Notes under the pieces: model-generated
What the model was told of the DNA's origin: nothing
Databases searched by the model: none
The model's input: the letters and a program-made list of their open reading frames with translations, nothing else
Source of the DNA: a phage
Length of the DNA stretch: 64,000 nt
Strand: one strand, 5' to 3'
Sequence record: PX068454.1
Position numbers and translations under genes: made by a program
Part shown: positions 1,982 through 23,683 of the stretch, piece after piece
How the letters are laid out: each line of letters opens with the position of its first letter
How positions within the stretch are numbered: the stretch's first letter is position 1

Positions 1982-2125
1982 GGTGTTTTTACCTCTTAGT
2001 TAATTTTCTTACAACTTCCCTTCAAAAAAGAATATAGCAAAACTGCCGATCCCTGTCAACCAAGGATGGCATAATTTTTATGTGATCAAGGGGCTTTATT
2101 GCCCCTGACCATGTAACTTGTTGTA

Positions 2126-2389: not shown

Positions 2390-2451
2390 GATGTTTTTCC
2401 TCTTTATGTGGTTTTTGTTTAGTGGGCCTTTTGGCCCGTGTCATTATCTTA

Positions 2452-2724
2452 TTACTTACGGCGGCAGAATTCAAGCGTTTTTAATTGATAATCTTCCTCA
2501 GCCTGGAGTACAACCGCCTCGATCATTTCGTTGGCATTGGTGAAGCCATACCCTTGAGCGAACTCATCCGCGCCACCTTCGTGATCATGTTCTGCGTTCA
2601 TCGCTTCCACAAAATGGAATTCAAGATTATTGAGGTAAGGGCTTGATGTTCCGTCCTCTTTTTCGATGAGATCCCAGATAGCATTAAAACGTGATTCAAC
2701 TTCTTGATTAATCCAGCTTGACAT
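2452..2724 (-). CDS. hypothetical acidic protein (90 aa)
   Basis: ORF track; preceded by promoter 2779-2807 and 5' UTR hairpin 2754-2767. Confidence 0.55.
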   Translation of the reverse strand: MSSWINQEVESRFNAIWDLIEKEDGTSSPYLNNLEFHFVEAMNAEHDHEGGADEFAQGYGFTNANEMIEAVVLQAEEDYQLKTLEFCRRK

Positions 2725-2778
2725 AATGTTTTCCTCTCTTCTGGTTGTTGTGTGGGCACTTTTGCCCCTTCAAGATAA

Positions 2779-2807
2779 ATAATATCCCACCACCTGGCAG
2801 ATGTCAA
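2779..2807 (-). promoter_or_regulatory. sigma70-type promoter TTGACA-17-TATTAT
   Basis: Hexamers read on minus strand; GC hairpin at 2754-2767 in the predicted 5' UTR. Confidence 0.6.
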
Positions 2808-2830
2808 CGGTTTTTATAGTTTTTATATAA

Positions 2831-2878
2831 CAGGCACCCCCGGTGATTGTCTCCCCCCGTCGCCAGGTGCCTGCCGTG
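2831..2878 (-). repeat. conserved GC-rich element, copy C (core GGGGAGACAATCACCGGGGGTGCC)
   Basis: Near-identical core to copies at 11779-11816 and 11916-11957; flanking inverted repeat CAGGCACC/GGTGCCTG. Confidence 0.5.
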
Positions 2879-2887
2879 AAACAAGTA

Positions 2888-2919
2888 TAACAAAAAACAG
2901 GACCATTGCAAGCCCTGTT
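2888..2919 (-). terminator. rho-independent terminator
   Basis: Hairpin ACAGG-N11-CCTGT followed on minus strand by TTTTTTG; downstream of CDS 2936-3127. Confidence 0.55.
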
Positions 2920-2935
2920 TTGTAGTTTATAAGGA

Positions 2936-3127
2936 TTATATTTTTTCGCCTATGTAGTCCGGTCGGTTTTTCTCTGTCATGCGCTTTAGCAATTCTTGCA
3001 TGTTACTTATGGCTTGTAGTGTATCCCCTTCCAGGCTTGAATCGACATAATCAGGATCGTCTATGACCTTTCTATGATTATGATAACGCAGTACCGCCAA
3101 TACCTTTCTAACTTGTTCGATATTCAT
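2936..3127 (-). CDS. hypothetical protein (63 aa)
   Basis: ORF track. Confidence 0.5.
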   Translation of the reverse strand: MNIEQVRKVLAVLRYHNHRKVIDDPDYVDSSLEGDTLQAISNMQELLKRMTEKNRPDYIGEKI

Positions 3128-3139
3128 TTTTACCGCTCT

Positions 3140-3274
3140 TTAAAACAAGGTGCCAACCGTTTCCAATAGATCACTGACTACCAGGACAATACCGATCAGC
3201 ACATACCTAACCATAAGGAGAAAGAGCGCCAGCGATCCCGCCACAATCCCCAAGGTGATGATTATCTTTCTCAT
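3140..3274 (-). CDS. small hydrophobic membrane peptide (44 aa, not in ORF track)
   Basis: ATG 3 nt after stop of upstream gene; translation MRKIIITLGIVAGSLALFLLMVRYVLIGIVLVVSDLLETVGTLF. Confidence 0.35.
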   Translation of the reverse strand: MRKIIITLGIVAGSLALFLLMVRYVLIGIVLVVSDLLETVGTLF

Positions 3275-3276
3275 GG

Positions 3277-3561
3277 TTAACGGTTTACGTAAGTTTTCCC
3301 GTTTACGGTGATTGGCAGATCTTCCAGGTCTGGATCTTCCTTAAGGTCGCGAGCAAGCTCACCGCACCGGATACCCTCGAATCCGTAGTACTCTGTCGTG
3401 CCGTCCTTAAAAGTTTTAGCGGCAAGGCATAAGCGATAAGTGACCCCGATTCGATTGACGGCATGAATATCCGTTAGATTAACCTCTTTTGCCAGCTCTT
3501 TAGCCATTACAGGCGCATTAAGTCCAACAACCAGGGCAACCACTGCGATCATCTTTTTCAT
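3277..3561 (-). CDS. secreted protein with N-terminal signal peptide (94 aa)
   Basis: N-terminus MKKMIAVVALVVGLNAPVMA looks like a Sec signal peptide. Confidence 0.55.
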   Translation of the reverse strand: MKKMIAVVALVVGLNAPVMAKELAKEVNLTDIHAVNRIGVTYRLCLAAKTFKDGTTEYYGFEGIRCGELARDLKEDPDLEDLPITVNGKTYVNR

Positions 3562-3652
3562 TGTGTCTATCCTCTTTCTGCTACGTTTAAGGCGGCGGTA
3601 ACCGCCTGTTTATGCTTTATTGGTTAATTTTCAGGTATCTCTATAAATTAAA

Positions 3653-3868
3653 CTATGCTGTACGCTCAACTATAACAACGGTTTGAGGGATCTCACCTTC
3701 CACCACTATCAAGGCTTTTTTCTGCGTGATGGATATCTTTACCCGTTGCAGCGTGGCGGTGAAGTCTTTCATTTCGTCACGTGGTGTTTTAGTGCAATAC
3801 CAGATCTCAGGCTTGCCGATCTGCAAGTTGCGTAAAAATTCTGTTTTGCCTGTTTTGTTAGTGATCAT
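3653..3868 (-). CDS. hypothetical protein (71 aa)
   Basis: ORF track. Confidence 0.5.
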   Translation of the reverse strand: MITNKTGKTEFLRNLQIGKPEIWYCTKTPRDEMKDFTATLQRVKISITQKKALIVVEGEIPQTVVIVERTA

Positions 3869-3877
3869 TTGCCAACC

Positions 3878-3982
3878 TCACCCGATACCGTTGGAAGATA
3901 AGATCACATTAGCCATGGTTGCAATCAGGCCAATACCCAGGGCAATAACCAGGATCACCGCATCAATTAATTTCTGTTTCAT
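3878..3982 (-). CDS. small membrane peptide (34 aa, not in ORF track)
   Basis: RBS GAGGAA then ATG; translation MKQKLIDAVILVIALGIGLIATMANVILSSNGIG. Confidence 0.3.
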   Translation of the reverse strand: MKQKLIDAVILVIALGIGLIATMANVILSSNGIG

Positions 3983-4072
3983 TTTGTTTTCCTCTTCTTG
4001 TTCCAGGTGGCGGACCATTCCACCGCCTTATGTATTATGCTTTGTAAGATGGTTGTTTGTTTTCAAACTATT

Positions 4073-4252
4073 TTAACGATAATCATCGTACGCTTTATTA
4101 ACCTGGCGAATATAACATTCAAAAGCCAGATCAATAGATTTATATTCACGGATATACTCACCATAGGAAACCACATACATTTCTATAGCTTCCTCATATG
4201 CGAGGAGAATAGAATCCAAGCCTACGATCTCAGTCTTTGCAATAATAGCCAT
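4073..4252 (-). CDS. hypothetical protein (59 aa, not in ORF track)
   Basis: Manual translation MAIIAKTEIVGLDSILLAYEEAIEMYVVSYGEYIREYKSIDLAFECYIRQVNKAYDDYR fills an operon gap. Confidence 0.4.
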   Translation of the reverse strand: MAIIAKTEIVGLDSILLAYEEAIEMYVVSYGEYIREYKSIDLAFECYIRQVNKAYDDYR

Positions 4253-4323
4253 GATTTTTATCCTCTTTGTGGTTGGTGGGGCTTGCCCCTTTGATTTATA
4301 TACTACAGTCTTATATGGTCATG

Positions 4324-4557
4324 TCAACTATTTTCAAAAAATTTTTCTGCTGTGATATTTTTCCCGGTCGGATTGGCTACTTTTAAAATTCTATCATGCA
4401 CCGGACGCCCGAAAGAATAAGATCCGTATACAGTAAACCAATAATCGCCGTCAGGTTGTACTATTACCGCCGCATATGGTACGCCTTTTTCGTTTTTGCT
4501 GACAAAATAGATCACATTGCCATTAATAGCCTCAGCGCGTTTAATTTGTTCCATCAT
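4324..4557 (-). CDS. hypothetical protein (77 aa)
   Basis: ORF track; RBS GAGAGG upstream. Confidence 0.5.
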   Translation of the reverse strand: MMEQIKRAEAINGNVIYFVSKNEKGVPYAAVIVQPDGDYWFTVYGSYSFGRPVHDRILKVANPTGKNITAEKFFENS

Positions 4558-4611
4558 GATGATTTACCTCTCTTTATTTTCATAATTGGGGCCTTTTCGG
4601 CCCCGCCAGGT

Positions 4612-4896
4612 TTATTTATTGATAGCGTGCAGCGGGAAAGGTACGCCAGGTTGATAGATAACTTTTACAACCTCATCAGGGCAAAAGAAATTGCAGAATT
4701 CACCCTGATAAGCCTCATCCTCTTTTAATTCTTCATCAACATACTGGAAAAAGTAGTCAATGCTTGGATAATCCTGACCGGGATTATATTCAACCATGGT
4801 TAATAACAATTCTTGATCATTCCGTATGATATGCATACCAGCTTTTAAGTATTTGGCTTCCATTTCTACTACATCGCCAACGGTAACAATAGCCAT
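4612..4896 (-). CDS. hypothetical protein (94 aa)
   Basis: ORF track. Confidence 0.5.
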   Translation of the reverse strand: MAIVTVGDVVEMEAKYLKAGMHIIRNDQELLLTMVEYNPGQDYPSIDYFFQYVDEELKEDEAYQGEFCNFFCPDEVVKVIYQPGVPFPLHAINK

Positions 4897-4955
4897 GGTT
4901 TTAACTCCTATCTATCCGGTTAATGATTGGAGGCCTCCCCGCCCCCGACACCCTT

Positions 4956-4984
4956 TATTATCCATATTGTAGGACTTGATGCAA
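4956..4984 (-). promoter_or_regulatory. sigma70-type promoter TTGCAT-17-ATAATA
   Basis: Shares AATATGGATAATAA block with promoter at 6120-6148; GC hairpin downstream. Confidence 0.45.
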
Positions 4985-5101
4985 GTACTTCTTTAAAAAT
5001 TTTTTAAGCGCCTTGGGGGCCGCTGTAACGCCAAAATAATAAAGGCTATGCAACCGCATAGCCTTTATGTGATTATACCGCTGCAGGCCCTGCCAGGGGC
5101 C

Positions 5102-5452
5102 TTATTTTGCATTCTTTCCTATATTGCCGCTACGGTACCAGCGTTTACGGTGAAAATGGTAATAATCACCATCGGCATTAAACATCAGATGATTTTCAAT
5201 AGCCAGCTTACGAAGGTGGGCCGGATCTTGTTCCATTCTTGCCAGATTCTGGCGGCTGTTACGTAAGCGGATAAATTCCATATTCAGGCCGTTGATTGCA
5301 GCATGGATGTCAAAGTAACCACCTTTGAGACGTTCACGCATGGCGTTAAGCTCAACACAATATACAGATTTCTCACAAATCAAGGTATTAGCCAGGGCGC
5401 GGACCTGGGCAAGGGGGTTAAGCTCATTAAGGTAATATAGTTTTACTTTCAT
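5102..5452 (-). CDS. hypothetical protein (116 aa)
   Basis: ORF track. Confidence 0.55.
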   Translation of the reverse strand: MKVKLYYLNELNPLAQVRALANTLICEKSVYCVELNAMRERLKGGYFDIHAAINGLNMEFIRLRNSRQNLARMEQDPAHLRKLAIENHLMFNADGDYYHFHRKRWYRSGNIGKNAK

Positions 5453-5469
5453 AAAATCACCTGCTGAAA

Positions 5470-5790
5470 TTAGTTTGAGAAAACATCGTTCACAATAGCG
5501 ATCACAATGCCGCCCACCTTGTCACGGTCAACAATGCACAAATCACCATAGATCATGTGGTAGTCTGGATGATCTTTGACGGAATAGTCTATAAGTGTTT
5601 TCTTGTCATCCAGCTTACTAACTTCCATTCTCATAACGATATGAGAATCATCAAAGGCATTATTCCGAAAAGTCATAACCTGACCGCCAGGGCACCCGGT
5701 GATTTCCACCTCCACGCCGTCTACGATCTGACCATCAAAGAAATAAAGATTATTAGCCTGGATAAACATGATCATTACTCCTTTTTGCAC
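5470..5790 (-). CDS. hypothetical protein (106 aa)
   Basis: ORF track. Confidence 0.55.
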   Translation of the reverse strand: MQKGVMIMFIQANNLYFFDGQIVDGVEVEITGCPGGQVMTFRNNAFDDSHIVMRMEVSKLDDKKTLIDYSVKDHPDYHMIYGDLCIVDRDKVGGIVIAIVNDVFSN

Positions 5791-5860
5791 TGATTATTTT
5801 AACAGGGTTTAAATTTACTTTATTGATGGCCCTGGAGTCAAGGCCATCTAAAAATAAATT

Positions 5861-6061
5861 TTACAGGCCTACAATCTCTTTAATTCGTTTTACTGCTGCC
5901 TCAGCGCCTTGAGGGTAAAAATTATGGTAACCAATCACGCGAGTGATACTAATCGCCGTTTGATGATCTTCATAATCACCTTTAAAGATTTCTTGACCGT
6001 CAATCAGCACGGCAATTTTTTCTTCTTTTTTGAAGTTAATAACGCGGATATTGTTGCTCAT
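5861..6061 (-). CDS. hypothetical protein (66 aa)
   Basis: ORF track; promoter and 5' UTR hairpin upstream. Confidence 0.5.
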   Translation of the reverse strand: MSNNIRVINFKKEEKIAVLIDGQEIFKGDYEDHQTAISITRVIGYHNFYPQGAEAAVKRIKEIVGL

Positions 6062-6119
6062 TTTGTTTCTCCTTTTGGAACTTTGTCTATGCGGTGGGGA
6101 GTGTCTCCCCGTTGATTGT

Positions 6120-6148
6120 TATTATCCATATTCTGGATCGGATTGCAA
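6120..6148 (-). promoter_or_regulatory. sigma70-type promoter TTGCAA-17-ATAATA
   Basis: Followed by 5' UTR hairpin GGGGAG-N-CTCCCC at 6097-6111. Confidence 0.45.
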
Positions 6149-6157
6149 CACTCAGGG

Positions 6158-6199
6158 AGAAAAAAAAAATTGAAAAGTTAGGCCCCAGGGATCGGGGCC
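6158..6199 (-). terminator. rho-independent terminator
   Basis: Hairpin GGCCCCGATCCCTGGGGCC followed on minus strand by a T-rich run. Confidence 0.55.
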
Positions 6200-6203
6200 G
6201 TTA

Positions 6204-6323
6204 TCAGTTACTTACAGCGATAAAATACATCCCTACGCCTAACAATATTTCAAGGGCGATGATCTCAAGCCATACCATAACACGGCGCGCCTTATCGGTG
6301 CGGGGCTTATCCTTGGGTGTCAT
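6204..6323 (-). CDS. small membrane protein (39 aa, not in ORF track)
   Basis: Strong RBS GGAGGAAAGGGGGAG before ATG; hydrophobic core; ends immediately before terminator. Confidence 0.4.
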   Translation of the reverse strand: MTPKDKPRTDKARRVMVWLEIIALEILLGVGMYFIAVSN

Positions 6324-6343
6324 CGTCTCCCCCTTTCCTCCTG

Positions 6344-6583
6344 TTAGCAGTGACGTGGTTTGCAATGGCCCCCAGGAGTATTATCACCACGCACATTACA
6401 AGAAAAATTATCTCTGTCGTTGTTCGATCCATTGTTATAAAATTCCTTAAGATCAGGCCTGAAAATAAAGCTTTCGTTATTGAATCCATCCCGCCAGGCG
6501 GCTGGCTTCAAATCTTCACTAAAGGGGTTAATTAACGTGGCATTATTTAAACGGCTGGTCCACATATTTTCTATTCCTCTCAA
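6344..6583 (-). CDS. hypothetical protein (79 aa), uncertain
   Basis: ORF track; RBS GAGAGG; overlaps upstream gene; competes with ORF 6307-6489. Confidence 0.35.
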   Translation of the reverse strand: MRGIENMWTSRLNNATLINPFSEDLKPAAWRDGFNNESFIFRPDLKEFYNNGSNNDRDNFSCNVRGDNTPGGHCKPRHC

Positions 6584-6947
6584 ATAGGCGATCCGCCTCA
6601 GTTAAACAAATCTCATGGGCGTGATCTCTGGTTTTAGCTTCATCGAAAACCTGTTGTGCAAGGCTGCAACGTAGGGAGACTGGAAGATCACTATAATAGG
6701 CGTTGACAAACGTTTGAGCGTCGTACAGGTCTGAAAATACTTTACCCTTTCTATTATTCCCCTTGTCAACAATTGCAAGGATAACCAATACAATAGTTGC
6801 AACCACTCCCAGGAAAATAGATATAACAAACCATAGAAAAGCGGATCTACCCATCTTGCCAGCGATCCAGGCGTTGAACAAGGCAACTACTACAGCCAAA
6901 ATAATAAATTCCATTCTATGTACCTCTTTTGCAGTTCTGTTTAACAA
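6543..6947 (-). CDS. membrane protein (134 aa, two predicted TM helices)
   Basis: Hydrophobic segments FIILAVVVALFNAWIAG and FLWFVISIFLGVVATIVLVILAIV. Confidence 0.6.
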   Translation of the reverse strand: MLNRTAKEVHRMEFIILAVVVALFNAWIAGKMGRSAFLWFVISIFLGVVATIVLVILAIVDKGNNRKGKVFSDLYDAQTFVNAYYSDLPVSLRCSLAQQVFDEAKTRDHAHEICLTEADRLFERNRKYVDQPFK

Positions 6948-6978
6948 TAAGGCGGCAAATATGCCGCCTGTTACCTGA

Positions 6979-7359
6979 TTAAAAATTATCGCCGTAAATC
7001 TTTCCGCTTTCTGCCCACACCGCCACGCGGGGCATGTTATCCCATACGTCTTGTTTTAGATTTAACGCGTGCAATTCTTCTGTGGTGCTCATACCAGGCA
7101 CGGGCTGATTGTATACTGCAAAACGACCACCTGCATAATCATAAGCTAAAGTCAAATCGCACTGAATCATTTTCTTGATCATGGCGTTAAGCATAGCGTT
7201 AGCCGCGTACTGGTCACGTTTTAAAGGCAACTCTTTGATTAGTTTGCGATAGTTTTCGATATGGTCGCACACTGTTTCACGTGGAAGATCTTTCATATCT
7301 TCACGGAATGTAACCAGGTTAAACATAACGGTGTCAATAGCTTTAGTAGTGTTTTTCAT
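6979..7359 (-). CDS. hypothetical protein (126 aa)
   Basis: ORF track; promoter and hairpin upstream. Confidence 0.55.
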   Translation of the reverse strand: MKNTTKAIDTVMFNLVTFREDMKDLPRETVCDHIENYRKLIKELPLKRDQYAANAMLNAMIKKMIQCDLTLAYDYAGGRFAVYNQPVPGMSTTEELHALNLKQDVWDNMPRVAVWAESGKIYGDNF

Positions 7360-7414
7360 GATGTTTTCCTCTTTGTTTTGTGTGGGGGCAAGTCATCTCG
7401 CCCCCTTAAGTTTT

Positions 7415-7442
7415 AATATAGCAGGTTTTTAGATTATTGCAA
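7415..7442 (-). promoter_or_regulatory. sigma70-type promoter TTGCAA-16-TATATT
   Basis: Followed by 5' UTR hairpin GGGGGC-N-GCCCCC at 7384-7405. Confidence 0.5.
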
Positions 7443-7450
7443 CACTTTAT

Positions 7451-8074
7451 TTATGAAAAACTCATCTCCCCATATTCATCCACATCAAACCGCCAATCAT
7501 TGGCTTCAATAAGGCCGATCAGGTTTTCGGTAGTAAACTGTTCAAGATAGGCCTCCTCCAGGTCTACATAAACCTTGCGGGATAGCTCCCGTACCGTCTC
7601 GGTGATCAGCTCTTCCAGATCTTCCACTTTATTTTCTTGTTTTGCGGTCAGATCTAGCCAGGTAGTATCAATATATCCGCTTACAGTGTTTTCATGGCTG
7701 TAATGGCTGTACTTGTCGCGTTCAACACTGGCTGATAGTTCGCCATCGTGCATTGTGCCGAACAAGTGACGAATTGATCGGAACTTGGTCAGGGCCTTGA
7801 CTTTACGCAAGAATTTCTCTAAGTCTACATTTTCAGCACTAATTGACGCGCCATCGCCTTGACACCAAAAGCCGGACCAATGTACATCGGTATCTTCAAG
7901 GCCGTACTCTGGAAAAACTTGTTCTTTATAATATTCAATTACACTTTCTGCGAAAAAATCCTCTCCGCTGTGTTCTTCTCTTTCGCGGACCATTTCAATA
8001 GCTTTTTCTTTTTGTTCGTCGGTCAGCACGTCGAAAGATAAATTGCAACCTGTGGTAATGTTAACGGTAGTCAT
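7451..8074 (-). CDS. hypothetical acidic protein (207 aa)
   Basis: ORF track; promoter and hairpin upstream. Confidence 0.6.
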   Translation of the reverse strand: MTTVNITTGCNLSFDVLTDEQKEKAIEMVREREEHSGEDFFAESVIEYYKEQVFPEYGLEDTDVHWSGFWCQGDGASISAENVDLEKFLRKVKALTKFRSIRHLFGTMHDGELSASVERDKYSHYSHENTVSGYIDTTWLDLTAKQENKVEDLEELITETVRELSRKVYVDLEEAYLEQFTTENLIGLIEANDWRFDVDEYGEMSFS

Positions 8075-8131
8075 GATATTTTCTCCTATTTTCTTTGTTA
8101 GTGGCGGGAAGTTTTCCCGCCTGTGTGTTTA

Positions 8132-8159
8132 AGTATACTTATTGAGGCTTACTTGTCAA
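8132..8159 (-). promoter_or_regulatory. sigma70-type promoter TTGACA-16-TATACT
   Basis: Followed by 5' UTR hairpin GGCGGGAA-N-TTCCCGCC at 8103-8121. Confidence 0.6.
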
Positions 8160-8161
8160 CA

Positions 8162-8410
8162 CTATTTTTTTAAATTATTGTGGCGTAAAATGTTTAGAAT
8201 CTCTTCAACGTCATCAACACGGCGGCAATTTTTAAACGCTACCAATTGCCCCATGATTTTAATCACTGGGCGGCCTTGCCAGTGCCCCTGGAGAAAGCGC
8301 GCCTTGACTTTATCGGTGGAACTATCACGCCACCAAATGGCCTTGTTGTTGCAGTAGTAAAAATTATTCAGGACAACATCAACTTTATCAAAATTTTTTA
8401 ATTTACGCAT
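8162..8410 (-). CDS. hypothetical protein (82 aa)
   Basis: ORF track. Confidence 0.5.
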   Translation of the reverse strand: MRKLKNFDKVDVVLNNFYYCNNKAIWWRDSSTDKVKARFLQGHWQGRPVIKIMGQLVAFKNCRRVDDVEEILNILRHNNLKK

Positions 8411-8442
8411 GGCGTTTACTCCTTTCTCTCTTTGATGTGGTT

Positions 8443-8470
8443 AGTATAGCTAACCTGTTTAAGATGTCAA
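8443..8470 (-). promoter_or_regulatory. sigma70-type promoter TTGACA-16-TATACT
   Basis: Hexamers read on minus strand upstream of CDS 8162-8410. Confidence 0.55.
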
Positions 8471-8612
8471 GCTTTAAATAAAATCACTGTCAATGATATT
8501 TTTAACGCCATAAAACGGCCCTAAGCGATGTTTTCAGGTTAAAGGGGGGCGATTGCATAGGTGGGGCCTTTTTGGCGCTTACAGGGCCAACCAGGGGCGC
8601 TATTCGTAGGAT

Positions 8613-8643
8613 AGAAATAAAAAGCCCCGCACAATGGCGGGGC
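8613..8643 (-). terminator. rho-independent terminator
   Basis: Hairpin GCCCCGCC-N-GCGGGGC followed on minus strand by TTTTTATTTCT. Confidence 0.55.
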
Positions 8644-8651
8644 GTTGGTTG

Positions 8652-8873
8652 TTATTTGTCTTTATGGCGGTATCGTTCTGCCTGTCGTTCACGTTCCAAA
8701 AGTAGGCCAGGCAATTTACGATCATAATGATTCCGCCAGATCTTCCCAAATCTTTTTGGCTTATTCAGTTTATTGTTGCGCTGGCGACGTTCCGGCAACT
8801 CTTCGGAATCATGAGGGCGCTTTACAATTTTTTCGAAATTAATTTTCATAACTTCCCCCCTTACTGATCTCAA
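8652..8873 (-). CDS. hypothetical basic protein (73 aa)
   Basis: ORF track. Confidence 0.45.
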   Translation of the reverse strand: MRSVRGEVMKINFEKIVKRPHDSEELPERRQRNNKLNKPKRFGKIWRNHYDRKLPGLLLERERQAERYRHKDK

Positions 8874-9210
8874 TATTTGCCTGAATCGCCCGGATACGCC
8901 GTTTTATAACCTCCTGATCCTTGCAATCATATCCCCAAAAGTCTACGATTTTTGCGCCTCCAGCCTTTAGGCGGTATAGTGTTTCTTGCATCTTGTAGGC
9001 CGGGATCGGTCGCGGTGTTACCTGGTCGCCCTTCTCATTCTTGTACTTGATAATGTAGTCTTCATTGTCGTTGAATACCCAAAATGGGTATTCTGTGAGC
9101 GCGTTGCTCTCTTTTTCGTTTTTAGATTGGATCTTGTTTACAATTAAAGCCGTAGCAATAGCGCCAATAATAAAACTTGCCCCACTGATCATGTTACTTT
9201 CTCCTTTCAT
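8839..9210 (-). CDS. membrane-anchored protein (123 aa)
   Basis: N-terminal hydrophobic helix ISGASFIIGAIATALIV. Confidence 0.55.
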   Translation of the reverse strand: MKGESNMISGASFIIGAIATALIVNKIQSKNEKESNALTEYPFWVFNDNEDYIIKYKNEKGDQVTPRPIPAYKMQETLYRLKAGGAKIVDFWGYDCKDQEVIKRRIRAIQANIEISKGGSYEN

Positions 9211-9268
9211 TGTATTGATAAACTATCTTTATAGATGGCCCTGCTACCAGGACCACCGAAAAAACAGT

Positions 9269-9514
9269 TTATTTGACGATACCGACAAAACAGATCCCGC
9301 CTTCCCCTATATAGGCAATATCGGTAATTTTATAATTTGTCAAGATCCGCGTGTTCAGCTCATTAATAAAATCTGTCATCGCGTTGGTGTAGTTGTCTTC
9401 CGTGTCTAAGGCATAATCCCAGGTGTAAACCTTTTTACGTCCGAAGCCTTTTACCATGATCCGGGCGCTTTTGGTGTTGGTAGGGGCATAGTATTTGGTG
9501 ATTAGTGCTGCCAT
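9269..9514 (-). CDS. hypothetical protein (81 aa)
   Basis: ORF track. Confidence 0.5.
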   Translation of the reverse strand: MAALITKYYAPTNTKSARIMVKGFGRKKVYTWDYALDTEDNYTNAMTDFINELNTRILTNYKITDIAYIGEGGICFVGIVK

Positions 9515-9600
9515 GGTTTTAACTCCTCATTAGTTCAGTGTTAACAGTGTAAAGTTTACTTTATTGATGGCCCTGGAGTCAAGGCCATCTAAAAATAAAT

Positions 9601-9951
9601 TTACTCGTTTTCTTCCAGTTCTGCAAGCTCTTCTTTCACTTCTTCGAGCTCTGTCTGCAATTCCTGGTATTCTTCATCGTCCTCAATATCCAGGCTGTCG
9701 ATGTAGTCGCTAAATCCGCAGCGGTAAGCGATAGGATCTAGCTCTTTGAGGATACGCGACGGAAGAAAAGAAATGTTTCCGATCATAATTTCGCCGTAGA
9801 TCTCGTCTAACCATTCATCATAGTTTTCGTCGTACTTGTCCTCGTCGATTTCAAAGTTATCGATCTTGTCTTCAAGTTCTGCAATCTGTTTTTTCAGGGC
9901 GGCGATCTGCAGGGCTTTTTCTTCGGCGGTCATAGTGATGGAAGTATTCAT
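9601..9951 (-). CDS. acidic coiled-coil protein (116 aa)
   Basis: ORF track; highly acidic composition. Confidence 0.55.
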   Translation of the reverse strand: MNTSITMTAEEKALQIAALKKQIAELEDKIDNFEIDEDKYDENYDEWLDEIYGEIMIGNISFLPSRILKELDPIAYRCGFSDYIDSLDIEDDEEYQELQTELEEVKEELAELEENE

Positions 9952-10003
9952 AATGTTTTCTCCTTTTGGTGTTCTGGGAAGTTTTCCCGTTTATGTGCTT
10001 AGT

Positions 10004-10031
10004 ATTATACTGATTTAAGTTAGCTTGTCAA
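10004..10031 (-). promoter_or_regulatory. sigma70-type promoter TTGACA-16-TATAAT
   Basis: Consensus hexamers; followed by 5' UTR hairpin GGGAA-N-TTCCC at 9974-9989. Confidence 0.65.
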
Positions 10032-10226
10032 TTAAAAGTTTAAGAAAAATTTTGCGAAATCATTGGCGCTACTCATCAACATTTGCGCCAGGATGTAACC
10101 AATGATGCAAACGATAATAGTTACCTTTGTGTGCTGGCGTGTAGTGCTCATCTTCAAGCCTCCTTTTTAACTGGGATTAGTTTACTTTACTGATGGCCCT
10201 GGAGTCAAGGCCATCTAAAAATAAAC

Positions 10227-10622
10227 TCAATAAGTTTTTAGTACTTTCCCGTCCAATCTGTCAAGCTGGATCTCGATAGCTGCAGAAAACCTATTGTAAA
10301 CCACATCGCCCAAGGAGTCCAGCCAATCTATGACGTTATACACCTGCTCTTTATTCTTGCAAGTCCGGATCCGTTTCATTACGTAAGACGGATCAATATT
10401 AGCGCTCTCGTTGTTGTGGTCATGCTCCTGGCCTGCTGCATTAGTTATAGATTTTACAACCACCTGAAAAGGCTTTAAGGTGCCTTTTGCGTTCATCTCA
10501 CGCGCTTTTGCGGCGCGGTTGTTATATGTTACACAACGGCGGCAAATGTTGACCAAATGCATGTCAATAATTTTTTCATCGTTTGCCAGTTCGTTCATGA
10601 TGCGGCGTACGTTCTTATTCAT
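10227..10622 (-). CDS. hypothetical protein (131 aa)
   Basis: ORF track. Confidence 0.55.
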   Translation of the reverse strand: MNKNVRRIMNELANDEKIIDMHLVNICRRCVTYNNRAAKAREMNAKGTLKPFQVVVKSITNAAGQEHDHNNESANIDPSYVMKRIRTCKNKEQVYNVIDWLDSLGDVVYNRFSAAIEIQLDRLDGKVLKTY

Positions 10623-10670
10623 GATCTTTTTCCTTTGTGTTGGCGGGAAACATTCCCGCCTTTTGTGATT

Positions 10671-10698
10671 AGTTTACTTGAATTTTGCAGCGTGTCAA
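10671..10698 (-). promoter_or_regulatory. sigma70-type promoter TTGACA-16-TAAACT
   Basis: Followed by 5' UTR hairpin GGCGGGAA-N-TTCCCGCC at 10642-10660. Confidence 0.6.
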
Positions 10699-10704
10699 CA
10701 ATTT

Positions 10705-11103
10705 TTATTCGTGGGCGCATGTTACAATGTGCTTTTTATAGCCCAGGTGGTTAGCAAGTGCCGACAAAAACTCTTCTTCATAGATCCAGCCGTTGGCAGT
10801 GATCCCCATAGCATTTAATGCGCTCTCAAGTGCTGCATTAGCTTTATCGTAACCGTGACCGCTCGCCTTCCCGCCAGTATAACCGTACTTATTGTTCTTG
10901 TTGTCGTGAATCCAAAAAACGCAGTATTGAGTGTTCCCGCTGGCGGCGGCATAATACCGGATCTCAGCTACTTCGTGCAAATTATTGTCATCGTCCAGGC
11001 CCACCAGATTATAAGCCTTGTAAAATCCACGATCCCGGCGGCAGTTCTTGACATCAGAAAAAGAAAAGTCCGCATTATCAAAATTAAAGGTAGTGGTTTT
11101 CAT
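10705..11103 (-). CDS. hypothetical protein (132 aa)
   Basis: ORF track. Confidence 0.55.
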   Translation of the reverse strand: MKTTTFNFDNADFSFSDVKNCRRDRGFYKAYNLVGLDDDNNLHEVAEIRYYAAASGNTQYCVFWIHDNKNNKYGYTGGKASGHGYDKANAALESALNAMGITANGWIYEEEFLSALANHLGYKKHIVTCAHE

Positions 11104-11167
11104 GATTTTATCCTCTTAGTGTCTTTTGTGCTTTTAGTGTATTTGGTGTCAGACTATATGTCAATAC

Positions 11168-11365
11168 TTATTTTTTATTAAACCAGTGGTTGATCTGGCC
11201 TTTTGTCAGGGCGCAACGATTAAGCTGTTGCCGGGTATAGCTCTGACCGCGACGGAATTTATAAAGGCCTTGCCCGTTGTTGATGGTTACGTCCACCTGG
11301 CAAACCATTTGATCGGTGACGGCCTGGTGAGTGTTGCGACGTACTTTAATTCCGTAGGCGTTCAT
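11168..11365 (-). CDS. hypothetical protein (65 aa)
   Basis: ORF track; RBS AGAGAGG upstream. Confidence 0.5.
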   Translation of the reverse strand: MNAYGIKVRRNTHQAVTDQMVCQVDVTINNGQGLYKFRRGQSYTRQQLNRCALTKGQINHWFNKK

Positions 11366-11778
11366 GATTTTTATCCTCTCTGTTAATTAGTGTGGTGTTG
11401 TTCACCTTGCGAGGATAAGAATAACAGAACTCTCCGAGCTGTCAACCATTAGTTAGAATTATTTTTTGGGAAGAATTCTCCAGCCGCCGCCCCTGCCAGG
11501 TTAACCATCATTTTTCGTACTCTTCTTTATGTTCCAACGCTCCCGCCATAGCCTTTTCAACCAGGGTGATAACTTCAGCGGCGTTGATCGCTACATTTTC
11601 CAGGGGATTATATTACTTTTCATTTTTGTACCTCCTCTTCAATTGTTACCTGACCTGTAGCATAGGCCTGCCAGGCTGGCCCCGCCAGGTTGCAACGGTT
11701 AGCGCATCAGGTTAGAAAAATTTTTTGAAAAGTGTTGACAGCGGCCCCGCCAGGTGGCACAATATACCTATCGAAAGG

Positions 11779-11816
11779 ACGGCAGGCACCGGTGACGGGG
11801 GAGACAACCACCGGGG
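11779..11816 (+). repeat. conserved GC-rich element, copy A
   Basis: GGCAGGCACCGGTGACGGGGGAGACAACCACCGGGG; hairpin CCGGTG/CACCGG; promoter-like TTGACA at 11737. Confidence 0.45.
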
Positions 11817-11915
11817 ATGGGCGCTGCATAAAATGAGAACGGTTATCATTATCATTTAAAAATTTATGCAAAAAATCCTTGCTTTCTTTGTCCTGTGTGA
11901 TACTATAATAACAAG

Positions 11916-11957
11916 CCGGGGCAACAGGGGCCGGGAGACAATCACCGGGGGTGCCCG
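11916..11957 (+). repeat. conserved GC-rich element, copy B
   Basis: GGGAGACAATCACCGGGGGTGCCCGTTAT matches copy C; preceded by perfect TATAAT at 11904-11909. Confidence 0.45.
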
Positions 11958-12591
11958 TTATTCTGCAAACGAGAATGATTATCATTCAAAATTCTAAATG
12001 AGAACTCCTCGCATTTAATAAATTTAATTAGCGTGCTAATTACCCTCCGTAACAATTTCCTATAAAACAGTATCCCATAAAATATTCCCATATAGAAATT
12101 TTAAAAATCCATTTCTGAAAACGAAAAATCGATTTCGTTCCCAAAAATTTCAGGTCGAGCTCCGGAACGATTTCCAGAAAATCCGATTCAGAAAACGAAA
12201 AACAGATCGAGTACTGAGAAATTTATCGAGAAAAATTTTCAGAAAATTCAATCTTTGAAACGAAAAACAGATCGAGTACCCTGAAAGCTGTACCGCAACC
12301 TCAAGATAGTGGTTAGACTATTACCATAAAAAGTCAAGGGTAAGTGGAGGAAGTTCTAGTAGAAGGATGTGAGCATGTGCGGGAAATCTGTAATGGTGGT
12401 CTGGAATATGGTGCAAACGATAGGATGAGCGATTCAGCTTGTCGCGCCTACTCTGAAAAATCCATTTTAGTTTTCGATCCATTTTCTGATTTTCTAAGAA
12501 TTTTAAAATATCTGGTCCGGTGAAATATCAAAAGGAGGAAATCCATTTTAGAAATCCTCCTGATCTCTAGCAACCTGATAACTTAAAAATA

Positions 12592-12924
12592 TCAGGTGCC
12601 CAGTTTGTTCTTTCCTTTATACAACCGTAAGGGTATAGTTTTTGTAACAGTCCATCTCCCCAGCCCTTCCCAGTTCCAGTTGTAGGCATGGTACCCGGTT
12701 ACGCATGCACTGCTAGAGTGGTCATAGGCATAAGAGAACGCTATACGCACCAAATGGAACCAGTCTTTCCACGGTTGTGGTCCGTAAGCTTTTCTCCAAC
12801 ACCGACACAAACTAAATGTCTCAAGAATAGGTAGGATAACAAATCCATACACCGCCACCAGAATAGCCAGCGCAATGATTGTCAGGAATACATACCCTGC
12901 AGTTGAAACGATGATCTCTGTCAT
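12592..12924 (-). CDS. membrane protein (110 aa)
   Basis: Hydrophobic N-terminal region. Confidence 0.5.
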   Translation of the reverse strand: MTEIIVSTAGYVFLTIIALAILVAVYGFVILPILETFSLCRCWRKAYGPQPWKDWFHLVRIAFSYAYDHSSSACVTGYHAYNWNWEGLGRWTVTKTIPLRLYKGKNKLGT

Positions 12925-13124
12925 TTGTCGTCCCCTTTCTTACGGATATAGATGTGAGAGCCTGCCTGTATATAAATTTCTCGACCATCTTCTGCAAAGA
13001 TATGAAATACACGATCACCTTCATACTCGATACGTGATATCTTCATAATGGTCTTTCCACCTGGGATGCGGATCTCGTCCCCCACAGCGATGTTCCATGC
13101 AGATTTAAGCTTAAACATCTGCAC
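12921..13124 (-). CDS. hypothetical protein (67 aa)
   Basis: ORF track; 4-nt overlap coupling. Confidence 0.5.
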   Translation of the reverse strand: MQMFKLKSAWNIAVGDEIRIPGGKTIMKISRIEYEGDRVFHIFAEDGREIYIQAGSHIYIRKKGDDK

Positions 13125-13356
13125 CCTCCTTTGGGAGCTCTAACTCTGGCATAGCCATATACGCCACAACAGGGTTGTAATCAAAGTAGAAATGACCGTT
13201 AATTATCCCAGTTTTGTGAGCATAGTCACCAGATCCTGCAAGAACAACCTCGCAAACTCCGAAATCCACCTTGCCATTCTCATCTGCCATGGCTACAATA
13301 TACTTTCCTAGAGGCATGTTTTTAACGCCGTCTACAAATGTCCACCCTTTGTTCAT
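13111..13356 (-). CDS. hypothetical protein (81 aa)
   Basis: ORF track. Confidence 0.5.
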   Translation of the reverse strand: MNKGWTFVDGVKNMPLGKYIVAMADENGKVDFGVCEVVLAGSGDYAHKTGIINGHFYFDYNPVVAYMAMPELELPKEGADV

Positions 13357-13376
13357 ACTTTATCTCCTGCATTCTC

Positions 13377-13709
13377 TTAAGGTAACCAGTAAACAATCTC
13401 GCCTTTCAGCTTCATGTCGTTTCCAACATAAATTTGCCAGCCATCCATCTTAGCAGCTGCAGGCCCAAAGTCATCCGCACCCCTTACCTCTTTCCAGGTC
13501 CCGTAGTCAGGTTGCCAGATGTAAAATCCACCTTCTTTGTCCCATGCTCCATACACTACGTTTAACAAGTTTCCCATTGCAACAATAGTGGGCCGTGGGA
13601 ACAATGCATCTACAGATGCGCCACAATATCTGGTATCTTTTAAATTGCACTCCCAAAAGATGTCTGCCAGTGTGGCGGCGATAGCTTTACGTCTTTCTAA
13701 TGTTACCAT
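13377..13709 (-). CDS. hypothetical protein (110 aa)
   Basis: ORF track. Confidence 0.55.
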   Translation of the reverse strand: MVTLERRKAIAATLADIFWECNLKDTRYCGASVDALFPRPTIVAMGNLLNVVYGAWDKEGGFYIWQPDYGTWKEVRGADDFGPAAAKMDGWQIYVGNDMKLKGEIVYWLP

Positions 13710-20983: not shown

Positions 20984-21259
20984 CAATAGTTCAGGTAGGT
21001 CGTTAAGCTACCCCGCACCATTACGTGCATAGCCATACGTTTTCACGTAGGATCGGACCATCTCATATTCCTATGATAAGCAACCACAGGAATCCTCCCA
21101 TTTCGACCGCACTTGCTGGTCTACTTCCTTTCGGAATGGCCTCTGAGCGTTCGCTCTTTTGAGCGCTTCGTTGCGGATTACCTTGCCATAAGGTTTAGGC
21201 TTCCCGCAGTTAAAGAGGTTATTCGACATAGATTACTCTATGAAGCCACAATGTTATTT
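20984..21259 (-). ncRNA. candidate group I self-splicing intron (ORF-less, 276 nt)
   Basis: Joins ..IIYYH to DEYQLQV restoring HDE; 5' exon ends in U and intron ends in G; IGS GUGG pairs with exon CCAU; P/Q/R/S-like elements ACUGCGGGAAGCC, AAUCCGCAAC, CUCAGAGGCCAUUCC, GAGAUGGUCCGAUCC. Confidence 0.7.
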
Positions 21260-23683
21260 ATGGTAATAAATAATACGACGAACACCTTCATCGTACCACC
21301 CACGCTTCACCATCTGGTGGTGCATGAGTATCCCAACTAAGTCACACAGCGATGCACCACCATTCTGTTGGTATGCATTAAGTAAAGAGTGTTTAGATCG
21401 GGTCCAGATAGCATGACCATCAAAAGAGTAGATAAACTTCTTACCCGTTGCTTCCCAGAATTTCTCCAGATCCTCTTTACGCCCTTTAAGACCAGGGTTG
21501 GCATCCCAAAGCGCATCGATTACCCTTTGCCCCAACTCTGGGGAGATATCCAGCATATCTGCAACTTTATCTTTTTGTGCCCCATACATAACCCCATACG
21601 TGATAGGTTTACCGTCGTTACGAGACACCTCTCTACCTGCCACTTTTGTATATGCCTCAGCATTGTTTTGGTGTGCGTCCCCGTTACTTACAACATCGTA
21701 ATACAGGCCGTTGTCGAACTCAAAGGCACCCCAAGCCCCGATAAGCTGCTCTAAGTTGGACCCGTCAATACCGATCTCAAAGTATCCTGGAGGAACACCC
21801 CACAGACTACGCATCTCTTTACCCATAACCACTTTAGGAGATGGTTTAGGCATGTTTGCACAAATACTGTGTTTCTGTCGGGAAGTGTTTGTTAATCCAG
21901 AACTTTTAGCAGGAAGCTTATGGTCAATCTTCAAACGTGGGTGATTAAGAAGACCAGTATCAACCTTATCCTCCTTGATTGGATCAAGGACCGATCTGCG
22001 GTTTCGCAATGATAACCACAAGACGATATCTTTAGCCATCTCTCCGTTCAATTTTTCAAGATTCGGACATAGGTGTCCAAACGTATCTTTCAGTTGCGGA
22101 GAAGTAATAAGTGCCCTGGCTTTTCTACGTATTTTCCCGAATACTTCCTTTTTAATCCTTTCGGAGTTAGGAAAGCTTCGGAACTTGTGCACGGTTGTCT
22201 GGAACTTAGCATCAGTTTTGTTCCAGAAGTTGATAATCAGGTCACAATACTCTGACTCTAAAAGCTCGTCCATATATGCATATACTCGTGCATCAACATC
22301 TGCATCAGGTAGAGCTTTCTTCTTGCTGTCTTTAGTTACATCCTTAGTTCTCCACATTGTCGGAAGCCAACCAGCACTGATCAGGTATCGCTTAATGTCG
22401 TCCTGATTGCTGATTTTCATAAGTATCTTGCAGTCCGGCATTCGCTTCTGCTGTAGATCACTTATTGCCTGATCCATTAGCTCTTTAGGTAAAGGTTGTG
22501 GTGTTGAGGTGCCCTTAATATAGCCTCTCAAGAAATCAGCCATCTTATCGGGGTCTTTGCAGCCCATCTCTTCACACCATTTTATCCCCATCTTACTGAC
22601 ATCTCCTGTGGAGGTAAATGCTCGCTTAGGCGGGGCTTTGAACTCTAAAGCGCTCATATCTACAGGATAGCCAAGCTTATCTTTTAACCATTTCCAGCCA
22701 TTATTGGAAATTGTCCCATCTTGGTTGAACGGCTTTTCAGGGAATTTAGGCCGCTGAGATATTGATAACTCTTTTAAAGGAAGTTGAGGTTCAACACGAT
22801 CAGCGATCTCTTTCATCCACGCATCACAGCGGTCACGTAAAGCAATAGCCCCGTCTATGTCGAAATACACACCCTGACGGGCCTGCAGCTCCATCAGGAA
22901 GTGCTGCAGCATGCCTCGGCGTAATGCGTTCTTCCAGGTGATCTTCTTGAACCCTTTCGGCTTCTCTTTGGCAGGATCGTACATAAAGTTCTGCATGTCA
23001 GACTTGCCGTAGAATACACCTTTTGATTCCGCTACCAGTTCTTTCCAGAGCAGCTCCTGGATGATAACGTCCTCAAATACACGATCCACATACTTCCACA
23101 ACGGAAGATCGCGCCAGTCATCAATTTGAACTTTCTGGTTACCAAGAGCATAGCCCCATGCCATAAGGCCGTGAGGACCAACAGGCTGCATTTTCTTAGT
23201 GACCGGGTTGAATACAGAGTCCGGACAACCTTTTGGTAAAGGGCGATCAGGCCACAAGATTCGACTCATCGCCAACGTATCAAACAGGTTAACCTGGTGG
23301 TCGTTGATAGTCCCCATGCATTTAGGATCACGGAACATGTCAAAATGAATACCGGATAATCTTTCCATCAGCATAAAGTCATAACTGTAGCAGTTATGGC
23401 AGTTCAAAGCTGTTGGTGACCAGTCGGAATTGCCTGTAAGCCAACCTTCCAACTCCGAAAAATCTGCTATGCGAACTTCAAAATCTTTATAAAGAGTTTT
23501 CTTTGCCAGAATGAAGTTCTTAGCCTTTTCTATATCCTCCTCGGAGTAGTGTGTGCGGTCATTTAGAGGAAGGAACAGCATAAAACGGTTCTTATTCAGC
23601 TCTTTAAACAGACCGCAGTGATAATAAAGATCTGGGTCTTCCAGTAAACCGGATGACTCAAAATCGAACGACCACATGCTCAT
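21260..23683 (-). CDS. DNA polymerase (family A, with 3'-5' exonuclease domain), exon 1
   Basis: Exo motifs FDFESSG and CYSYD; motif A GIDGSNLEQL; motif B KPITYGVMYGAQ; stops one codon after YYH. Confidence 0.85.

Follow-up and report, generated by a model that had tools for sequence, protein, structure and literature searches.

A conserved non-coding island of rV5-like phages with Fur-operator-like palindromes, G-rich elements, and a possible transcription-activated origin

Several phage and plasmid replication origins are activated or primed by transcription. The primary origin of phage T7 consists of the tandem promoters 1.1A and 1.1B and an AT-rich segment, T4 oriF and oriG combine a promoter with an unwinding element and use an R-loop primer, lambda ori joins four iterons to an AT-rich segment and is activated by transcription from pR, and RNA II of ColE1 forms a G-rich RNA-DNA hybrid. 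Here we analyze a stretch of 64,000 nucleotides (nt) of phage DNA (sequence record PX068454.1; hereafter the window), in which a gene-free island at positions 11366 to 12591 interrupts an array of leftward early genes. Like those origins, the island has predicted tandem promoters leading into low-stability repeat DNA, a predicted G-rich nascent RNA, and a conserved non-coding position. It differs from them in that its repeats are 57-nt units with a spacing of 63 to 78 bp rather than iterons of about 20 bp, and in the absence of DnaA boxes and of a recognizable initiator gene.

A second comparison is with the Fur operators of Enterobacteria, described either as a 19-bp inverted repeat (GATAATGATAATCATTATC) or as a 7-1-7 unit (TGATAATnATTATCA). 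The island has predicted sites with the same inverted-repeat motif, arranged in arrays, one of them in the spacer of a promoter-like site as at fecI. Unlike the enterobacterial operators, these sites belong to a virulent phage and have no iron-related gene near them; their phasing is exactly 29 bp, they stand a fixed 32 nt behind another conserved motif, and most are downstream of strong promoters instead of over them. Their consensus half-sites are GAGAAT/ATTCTC, whereas the classical ones are GATAAT/ATTATC. Sibling or antisense small RNAs, such as the Fur-repressed RyhB and the plasmid copy-control RNAs, offer a third parallel. G-rich elements in the window share with them an own promoter, a predicted length of about 50 to 60 nt, paralogous copies, an invariant core, and adjoining Fur operators, but they have no Rho-independent terminator or covariation, and the Fur box is downstream of the promoter, not on it. 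Finally, in phage T5 a repeat-rich non-coding injection-stop region closes the first-step-transfer segment and lies inside the 10-kb terminal repeat. That region resembles the island in being gene-free, rich in repeats and palindromes, and in closing a terminal block of small early genes of about 8% of the genome; no likeness of sequence is expected, and the island of rV5-like phages lies outside their terminal repeat.

We conclude that the island is most likely a conserved cis-acting control region that splits the leftward early gene array into two transcription units. What it controls is less certain. The reading that we put first, with a probability of roughly 0.3, is a Fur-gated, transcription-activated replication origin. 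A purely transcriptional switch and a set of sibling small RNAs are close rivals; a DNA-end signal, a Fur decoy, and decay are less likely. The region was previously known only as an unexplained gap. Its ingredients are each of a known kind, while their combination and the setting in a virulent phage are new.

A gene-free island shared by two subfamilies

The window derives from an rV5-like phage (Vequintavirus). A 1.4-kb query around the island matches 122 phage records; its identity is 99.6% to both Escherichia phage I29 and Shigella phage CM1, and 92 to 96% to most rV5-like phages. In 96 phage records the coverage of the region reaches 80% or more. The matching records show there at most short "hypothetical" open reading frames (ORFs) that are called inconsistently. 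With positions 11640 to 12020 as the query, sensitive blastn recovers the segment from about 11931 to 12018, which comprises the 3' half of the G-rich element E2 and the palindromes behind it, at 80 to 90% identity in Seunavirus, Mydovirus, Certrevirus, Henunavirus, and one Serratia phage, and at about 70% in Phapecoctavirus, a member of a different subfamily. Every relative genome so recovered has a gene-free gap of about 0.8 to 1.4 kb at the same place among leftward small genes.

The architecture is shared by five Vequintavirinae genera and Phapecoctavirus. The order common to the relatives is an optional promoter with a small plus-strand ORF, a promoter with an element that we call RNA-A, a promoter with a G-rich element (E), one to four palindromes, three or four direct repeats, and short AAATATC-type repeats. 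The succession of promoter, G-rich element, palindromes, and repeats is present in all Vequintavirinae genera examined, and architecture, spacing, and core sequences are kept across genera where the flanking DNA no longer aligns. The common order, conserved across two subfamilies, is thus the opposite of the free variation or absence in close relatives that an earlier note on this DNA, made from the sequence alone, had named as evidence against a function. In rV5-like phages a second copy of E has taken the place of RNA-A.

The rV5 genome map of Kropinski et al. (2013) has a grey box labeled "non-coding" that "contained no ORFs", and the skew analysis of rV5 found no origin, with switches only where the direction of transcription changes (PMC3606486). 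That paper gives neither an anatomy nor a function for the box and does not mention the elements described here (PMC3606486). By its description, we take the box to be the same region in the type phage. Searches of the literature accessible to us turned up neither a transcriptome nor origin mapping for these phages, no report of Fur boxes in them or in other lytic phages, and no account of iron sensing by cis-regulatory sites in strictly lytic phages.

We agree with the earlier note that 11366 to 12591 holds no credible ORF. That it is the longest such stretch is not borne out, as the gap without annotated genes at and before the start of the window (window 1 to about 1255) is about 2.3 kb in I29. 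A coding reading of the G-rich elements was rejected, since the GUG-initiated 16-codon frame is not conserved and the GUG is absent in rV5_ev168 and Hena1. Also set aside was a 92-amino-acid (aa) ORF annotated in I29 (11707 to 11985, minus strand), which begins within a Fur box and is annotated inconsistently among relatives. The borders of the island and a dead gene at its left end are as follows.

11418 to 11445, minus strand: predicted leftward sigma70-type promoter, TTGACA-16-TATTCT, TG-extended (promoter scan)
11460 to 11628, minus strand: frameshifted remnant of a 55-aa leftward gene (pairwise alignment, 1-bp indels)
12533 to 12561, minus strand: terminator-like hairpin, AGGAGGA-N15-TCCTCCT followed by TTTGATATTT, behind the leftward gene 12592 to 12924

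The 55-aa gene is intact in rV5_ev168, with a good ribosome-binding site (L002, 3162 to 3329), and just upstream of its remnant the window lacks 48 bp that rV5_ev168 has. The dead gene thus accounts for about 170 nt of the island. The hairpin with its flanks folds at -20.3 kcal/mol (z = -2.15) and looks like the terminator of the right-hand gene block, while the promoter at 11445 to 11418 is predicted to restart transcription of the left-hand early genes, the first of which occupies 11168 to 11365. With a candidate terminator at its right edge and a predicted promoter at its left, the island would separate two leftward transcription units. For ten proteins encoded next to the island, in the window and in relatives, Pfam gives no match, and their PHROG families are of unknown function.

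In the islands of Phapecoctavirus (L003, 2575 to 2841) and Serratia phage Kashira (L009, 1028 to 1294), the small plus-strand ORF encodes a helix-turn-helix-looking stretch, GGTVHQVAxATGL, and belongs to PHROG 19316, of unknown function.

Promoters, G-rich elements, and Fur-operator-like palindromes

The central part of the island, with a third G-rich copy that lies elsewhere in the window, contains the following features.

11678 to 11694, plus strand: copy 2 of the GGCCCCGCCAGGTKGC motif; further copies at 11743 to 11759 (P1 spacer) and, as a variant, at 11489 to 11505
11735 to 11763, plus strand: P1, predicted rightward sigma70-type promoter, TTGACA-17-CACAAT, TG, 10 of 12 matches (promoter scan)
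11775 to 11827, plus strand: E1, G-rich element, core GAGACAACCACC (11801 to 11812)
11832 to 11850, no strand: Fur box 1 (predicted), AATGAGAACGGTTATCATT, 26.8 bits on the phage matrix
11879 to 11909, plus strand: P2, predicted promoter, TTGCTT(11879)-16-TG-a-TACTAT, overlapped by a perfect TATAAT at 11904
11911 to 11965, plus strand: E2, G-rich element, core GAGACAATCACC (11935 to 11946)
11960 to 11989, minus strand: candidate leftward promoter, TTGAAT(11989 to 11984)-18-CAGAAT(11965 to 11960), with Fur box 2 as its spacer (8 of 12 matches)
11968 to 11986, no strand: Fur box 2 (predicted), AACGAGAATGATTATCATT, 25.2 bits, exactly 32 nt after the E2 core
11997 to 12015, no strand: Fur box 3 (predicted, degenerate), 16.9 bits, 29 bp after box 2
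2825 to 2886, minus strand: E3, third G-rich copy, core 2853 to 2842

A new result concerns the palindromes, which had not been singled out before. Fur box 1 is identical at 17 of 19 positions to the fecI operator of Escherichia coli (TATGAGAATGGTTATCATT). Positions 11835 and 11971 match the classical 19-mer GATAATGATAATCATTATC at 15 or more of 19 bases, and there are only three such sites in the 64 kb. The 7-1-7 units of the island boxes are TGAGAACgGTTATCA and CGAGAATgATTATCA, and the phage consensus, AATGAGAATnATTCTCATT, is itself a 7-1-7 unit that departs from TGATAATnATTATCA by one base per half-site. For box matches to the phage matrix, shuffled windows give 0.7.

That matrix was built from 28 distinct phage palindromes only and was then scanned on two E. 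coli K-12 loci, 65 kb in total. In the 30-kb ent-fep locus, all matches of at least 10 bits fall in the fepA-fes, fepD-entS, or fepB-entC intergenic regions, which also hold four of the top five. In the 35-kb fec locus, the two best matches are the fecI promoter (TATGAGAATGGTTATCATT, 24.5 bits) and the fecA promoter, and the next has 7 bits. All of these promoters are Fur-regulated, and Fur-regulated regions make up 2.4% (ent-fep) and 0.6% (fec) of the scanned loci. Of 300 matrices with shuffled columns and unchanged composition, not one equaled this result in either locus. In sequence, then, the island palindromes are equivalent to E. coli Fur operators, and the result illustrates how cross-scanning of host operators can reveal the motif of a host transcription factor in phage DNA. 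Binding of host Fur to these sites, with an effect there, is a step beyond this equivalence, and we judge it slightly more likely than not. Fur, the only regulator tested, was the best fit among those considered, the others being Zur, KdgR, the ArgR box, and the RcsAB box (wrong spacing).

Perfect TTGAGAATGATTCTCATTT palindromes also occur in unrelated viral contigs, for which a host factor is a better fit than a lineage-specific phage protein. Among IMG/VR contigs (L024/L032/L033, L034, L038, and L039/L045) there are perfect (A/T)TGAGAATGATTCTCATT palindromes, some of them paired, in surroundings otherwise unlike the G-rich element, which suggests that Fur-type boxes may occur in other phages too.

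The geometry of the boxes is rigid. The first box follows the G-rich core at 32 nt for E2 and for all relatives examined; for E1 the distance is 30 nt. The step from one box to the next is 29 bp in the window, Seunavirus, Mydovirus, and Kashira. Arrays reach four boxes, with steps of 29-29-29 in anhysbys and 29-29-38 in Certrevirus, and a 30-nt block, ATTCTGCAAATGAGAATGATTnTCATTCAA, is conserved past the Fur box itself. Box 2 also fills the spacer of a candidate leftward promoter. This TTGAAT / Fur box / CAGAAT layout is conserved in Vequintavirinae and is that of the E. coli fecI promoter (TTGTAA, Fur box, TAATAT), pointing to a putative Fur-repressed leftward promoter.

The rightward promoters are conserved as well. 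Promoter-like sites, some of which the earlier note reported, are more frequent than chance would give, with 14 sites against 5.8 +/- 2.3 in shuffles of 10500 to 13500, and a promoter-like sequence does precede each GC-rich element, one with the perfect TATAAT. Both P1 and P2 point against the gene flow, P2 is homologous to the promoter preceding the same G-rich element in all relatives, and the same promoter scan finds homologous rightward promoters in CR3 and GAP31. We infer that P1 and P2 fire. A short motif beside them had been described as four copies of CCGCCAGGT(T/G); two exact copies are in the region (11682 and 11747), and the other two are the variant CTGCCAGG (11493 and 11668), the former inside the decayed 55-aa gene. 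In two divergent contigs, L020 and L046, the GGCCCCGCCAGGTKGC motif adjoins P1 as well. One explanation considered for the CCCCGCCAGG motif, mimicry of CRISPR repeats, had no support in an Rfam scan.

The two GC-rich plus-strand elements noted earlier are indeed homologous: 11799 to 11819 and 11933 to 11953 are 90% identical, and nhmmer extends the matches to 11789 to 11827 and 11911 to 11965. E3, outside the coordinates covered by that note, makes them a family. It stands behind its own leftward promoter, TTGCAA-16-TATACT (2911 to 2884), and has no Fur box. All three members have a sigma70-type promoter 30 to 38 nt ahead, and the G-rich strand is the sense strand in each, even in the leftward-pointing E3. 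The flanks differ from genus to genus, but all share one unchanging 12-nt core, GAGACAAnCACC. The core is over-represented in the window (5 matches versus 0.91 expected), where its only complements are the opposite strands of the elements themselves, so that the search gave no complementary target. When 185,579 genomes were scanned for GGAGACAANCACCGGGG, only scattered matches came up, the pattern being too short for the collection; these are judged chance because of their spread over unrelated taxa and the size of the collection.

A conserved RNA structure, which the earlier note proposed to look for by folding and covariance, was not found in the elements. RNAalifold finds no consensus fold for the G-rich element and returns only the Fur palindrome. 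Folding z-scores against shuffled sequences range from -2.6 to +0.9, with an ordinary average of about -0.5, and 5' and 3' arms pair no better when cognate than when swapped between lineages (-13.45 versus -13.43 kcal/mol, P = 0.49). Permissive Rfam scans of 10500 to 13500 (E <= 10) and of the loci of three relatives gave no meaningful match, only chance-level ones (snoRNA, thermometer, and CRISPR-DR57 at E = 4). We therefore conclude that the G-rich element is conserved as sequence, not as a fold, and reject a structured RNA. A scan also found no canonical terminator after E1 or E2. E3 folds into a closed hairpin of 9 to 11 bp (-22.4 kcal/mol, z = -2.2) followed by UUAUAU.

Around E3, the segment 2779 to 2911 (minus strand), upstream of gene 2452 to 2724, has tandem leftward promoters, TTGCAA-16-TATACT and TTGACA-17-TATTAT, with E3 between them; the second carries CTGCCAGGTGG in its spacer, like P1. 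In KPP-1, a partial 3' half of the G-rich element (AATAATCACCGGACCTACCTGTAATGC) is located just outside the terminal repeat (L017, 1050 to 1085). In Seuna-, Mydo-, Certre-, Henuna-, and Phapecoctaviruses (L004 2820 to 2905, L005, L006 1335 to 1415, and 14 others), the island contains RNA-A, a conserved element of about 85 nt (CGCCACCCCACGGCG...GGATCGCCGGTAG) that follows a promoter of its own and has no Rfam match. Two of its pairs show compensatory change, A-U replacing G-C in 7 of 17 sequences, and its covariation score was reached by no shuffle; its 5' hairpin is terminator-like when read on the opposite strand, and its GCCGGTAG stretch may resemble the RfaH ops core, GGCGGTAG. No RNA-A homologue was found in the window by nhmmer (E > 4).

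A candidate gated origin and its rivals

Beyond the palindromes, the DNA becomes easily melted and repetitive.

12013 to 12112, no strand: second least stable 100-bp duplex of the 64-kb window, 25 to 31% G+C, between the boxes and the repeats; candidate unwinding region
12091 to 12286, plus strand: three 57-nt direct repeat units, starting at 12091, 12165, and 12230

The A-rich degenerate repeats of the earlier note resolve into these three units, which are 63 to 100% identical, and its 20-mer ACGAAAAACAGATCGAGTAC is exact at 12195 to 12214 and 12260 to 12279. AAATCCATTT, said to occur in both orientations, has three copies (12105, 12458, and 12539), all on the plus strand. Each unit holds AAATCC(A/G)-type and GAAAACGAAAAAnnGATCGAGTAC parts, and the 3' parts are homologous to the GAAAAAnCGATCGAGnnC iterons of other genera, found in every Vequintavirinae genus examined as 3 to 4 copies, always on the plus strand and 63 to 78 bp apart. 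GC skew is +0.15 to +0.18 over 11700 to 11850, so that the transcribed strand downstream of P1 is G-rich.

In the model that we favor, leftward transcription from the right-hand genes would end at the hairpin 12533 to 12561 and resume at the promoter 11445 to 11418. Between the two, host RNA polymerase would start rightward at the strong sigma70-type promoters P1 and P2, where there is nothing translatable. Each transcript would open with a G-rich leader of about 50 nt bearing GAGACAAnCACC and meet one or two Fur operators about 55 to 85 nt from its start. With iron-loaded Fur bound, the rightward polymerases would be blocked and the weak leftward promoter with the operator as its spacer repressed. 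With Fur absent or displaced, transcription would run on into the low-stability segment and the array of three 57-nt repeats, where the G-rich RNA, the passing polymerase, or both may open the duplex for the phage replisome. We infer Fur binding in vivo, the action of Fur as a roadblock or repressor, and the use of the repeats as an origin.

A replication origin at the island is plausible, and we put this reading first because the layout of promoters, gate, easily melted DNA, and repeats most resembles transcription-activated phage origins. GC skew, weaker to the left of the island and stronger to its right at unchanged gene direction, also counts among the origin-like features. The repeats themselves are a doubtful candidate for the site of initiation. 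Equally tentative is a broader proposal, in which host Fur serves as an environmental input for virulent phages both of Vequintavirinae and of the Phapecoctavirus group, two subfamilies. Phased operator arrays, placed in the conserved island and in the terminal repeats, would act with a promoter-linked GAGACAAnCACC element to couple early transcription, replication initiation, or both to the iron status of the infected cell.

Several points weigh against an origin of this kind. The skew analysis of rV5 found no origin. In the window, GC skew changes in size, not in sign, across the island (about -0.02 to -0.06 to its left, about -0.08 to -0.18 to its right). The 63- to 78-bp spacing of the repeats is unlike that of classical iterons, which are about 20 to 22 bp apart, and Phapecoctavirus retains the promoters and Fur boxes but has other repeats in place of GAAAAAnCGATCGAGnnC. 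DnaA boxes (TTWTNCACA) are absent from the island of the window; the islands of relatives have isolated matches only, one of them a perfect DnaA box in Kashira. No replication initiator is recognizable among the ten flanking proteins. As for the gate, P1 and P2 have their boxes downstream, at about +55 to +85 and clear of the -35 and -10 elements, and the leftward promoter under box 2, with its 8 of 12 matches, is not reported by the promoter scan. E3 has neither a Fur box nor following repeats, so the element has a role independent of the scheme, and Fur-like boxes are also found in the terminal repeat (below), so they are not specific to an origin.

Divergent Vequintavirus-like contigs (L020, 2560 to 2790, minus strand; L046, 880 to 1010, minus strand) have 4 to 6 copies of extra GGTGATTAATAGTTAC-like repeats between the second G-rich element and the iterons, and in L046 there is no Fur box behind that element.

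The closest competitor, possible though doubtful in our view, is an iron-responsive transcriptional switch with no origin. P1 and P2 would oppose the weak Fur-repressed leftward promoter, facing it 40 nt apart; rightward firing would interfere with the leftward transcript or make RNA antisense to it, and Fur would set the winning direction. The leftward transcript, carrying at its start the sequence complementary to the core, would supply the early genes on the left, and the downstream repeats would be sites for another factor or bent DNA insulating the two units. Operator identity and the fecI-like layout favor a Fur-controlled promoter, as does a geometry in which the core keeps its 32 nt from the box, and hence from the leftward promoter, whereas its distance to the rightward -10 varies from 30 to 38 nt. 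Conservation of the ATTCTGCAAATGAGAATGATTnTCATTCAA block past the box and the borders of the island, a terminator-like hairpin at one edge and a promoter at the other, also fit. However, the leftward promoter is weak on paper (8 of 12), the box of E1 has no comparable promoter and E3 has no box, and a conserved iteron array with low-stability DNA is left unexplained.

Among the three roles that the earlier note offered without choosing, a regulatory hub is the best supported, now with the addition of Fur-operator look-alikes in rigid geometry, the terminator-like hairpin at 12533 to 12561, and the promoter at 11445 to 11418, both on the minus strand.

A small-RNA locus, another of those roles, keeps part of its support: the conserved promoters of its own, the invariant 12-nt core, and a three-member family remain, and the fold, covariation, canonical terminator, and Rfam match do not materialize. 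In this alternative, which we consider unlikely, E1, E2, and E3 would be genes for sibling short RNAs of about 50 to 60 nt each. The single-stranded core GAGACAAnCACC would let these RNAs act in trans, their partner being a protein or an RNA of host or phage, and the Fur boxes would merely end or modulate the transcripts. Three copies behind promoters 30 to 38 nt ahead, with the G-rich strand always sense, are what such genes would look like, and an invariant core in variable flanks, present 5 times against 0.91 expected, recalls small-RNA seeds. E3 has its clean hairpin and UUAUAU, and the relatives carry RNA-A with its two compensatory base pairs in the same island. Set against this are the lack of a consensus fold by RNAalifold, the z-scores averaging about -0.5, the arm test at P = 0.49, the missing canonical terminators after E1 and E2, and the absence of an Rfam match or complementary target.

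A DNA-handling signal tied to the genome ends, for packaging, concatemer processing, or an injection pause, is improbable. Mydovirus KPP-1 has a 514-bp terminal repeat at 116,316 to 116,829 by coverage and PhageTerm (PMC9862379), and its island, at 124,579 to 125,820, is about 8 kb away. In I29 (102500 to 106500, L049), a 100%-identical segment of about 545 bp occurs twice (1396 to about 1940 and 1990 to about 2534, 594-bp spacing), with an inverted stretch of about 50 nt joining the copies. This looks like a direct terminal repeat assembled twice. Its right end corresponds to about window position 216, and the island therefore lies about 11.7 kb inside the genome. One more feature belongs here.

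10 to 162, no strand: second cluster of Fur-like boxes (predicted), 19.5 to 20 bits, at 10, 126, and 144, in the apparent direct terminal repeat

In favor of a DNA-end signal, the island is about 11.7 kb (about 8.5% of the genome) from the inferred terminal repeat with only small early genes between, the corresponding distance in KPP-1 is about 8 kb, island and terminal repeat share Fur-like boxes and clusters of AAATATC motifs, and several database records open inside or beside the island. Yet the terminal repeat is elsewhere in both KPP-1 and I29, for which reason the island as a genome terminus or pac site was rejected. The break points of the records differ in position, one of them, with its "attL/attR" features, being an 80-bp assembly overlap, and rV5-like phages are not known to use two-step injection.

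It is very improbable that the boxes serve as a Fur decoy, the three of the island and three per terminal repeat titrating Fur to de-repress host iron uptake or ribonucleotide-reductase-related genes, with the rest of the island unrelated. A sponge would be suited by the presence in each genome of several boxes with high scores, conserved in two subfamilies and spread over two non-coding loci, but the 32-nt and 29-bp geometry and the fixed placement behind promoters would be needless for one, and the boxes are few against the thousands of Fur molecules in a cell. Just as improbable is mostly decaying DNA with no current function, a dead gene with leftover promoters and repeats. The frameshifted remnant at 11460 to 11628, the 48-bp deletion relative to rV5_ev168, and the degenerate Fur box 3 and 3' arm of E1 speak for it; an architecture, spacing, and cores conserved across genera with unalignable flanks, and the 96 phage records with at least 80% coverage, speak against it.

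rV5-like phages and their relatives are widely isolated and have therapeutic and biocontrol use against E. coli, Klebsiella, Salmonella, Cronobacter, and plant pathogens. Should Fur bind the boxes, infection would depend on iron, which is scarce in the gut, urine, and inflamed tissue, the intended sites of use. For phage engineering, the island provides a defined candidate origin and three candidate small RNAs.

Further features of the island and the window

The right part of the island has two more features.

12300 to 12450, plus strand: purine- and G-rich stretch with GC skew up to +0.52; ORFs there are not conserved
12506 to 12597, plus strand: AAATATC motifs at 12506, 12523, and 12587, with AAATCCATTTTAG copies at 12458 and 12539

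The purine-rich stretch has G-rich counterparts in L046 and Kashira. Neither tRNA nor tmRNA genes were found in the window.

Elsewhere, CCWGG (Dcm) sites number 5 to 13 per 2 kb in window 1 to 12000 and about 3 per 2 kb in the rest, and C[CT]GCCAGG in the same 12 kb is on the plus strand in eight of nine cases. Another non-coding region, at 470 to 560 and 690 to 900, has GACACAAT-type repeats and CAACTAT / TAGTTGCC inverted motifs, and holds the least stable DNA of the window, near 907. At the gathering score, Rfam identifies across the whole window only a group I catalytic intron (RF00028) at 21034 to 21269 on the minus strand, with 64.7 bits against a gathering score of 50 (E = 4e-14).

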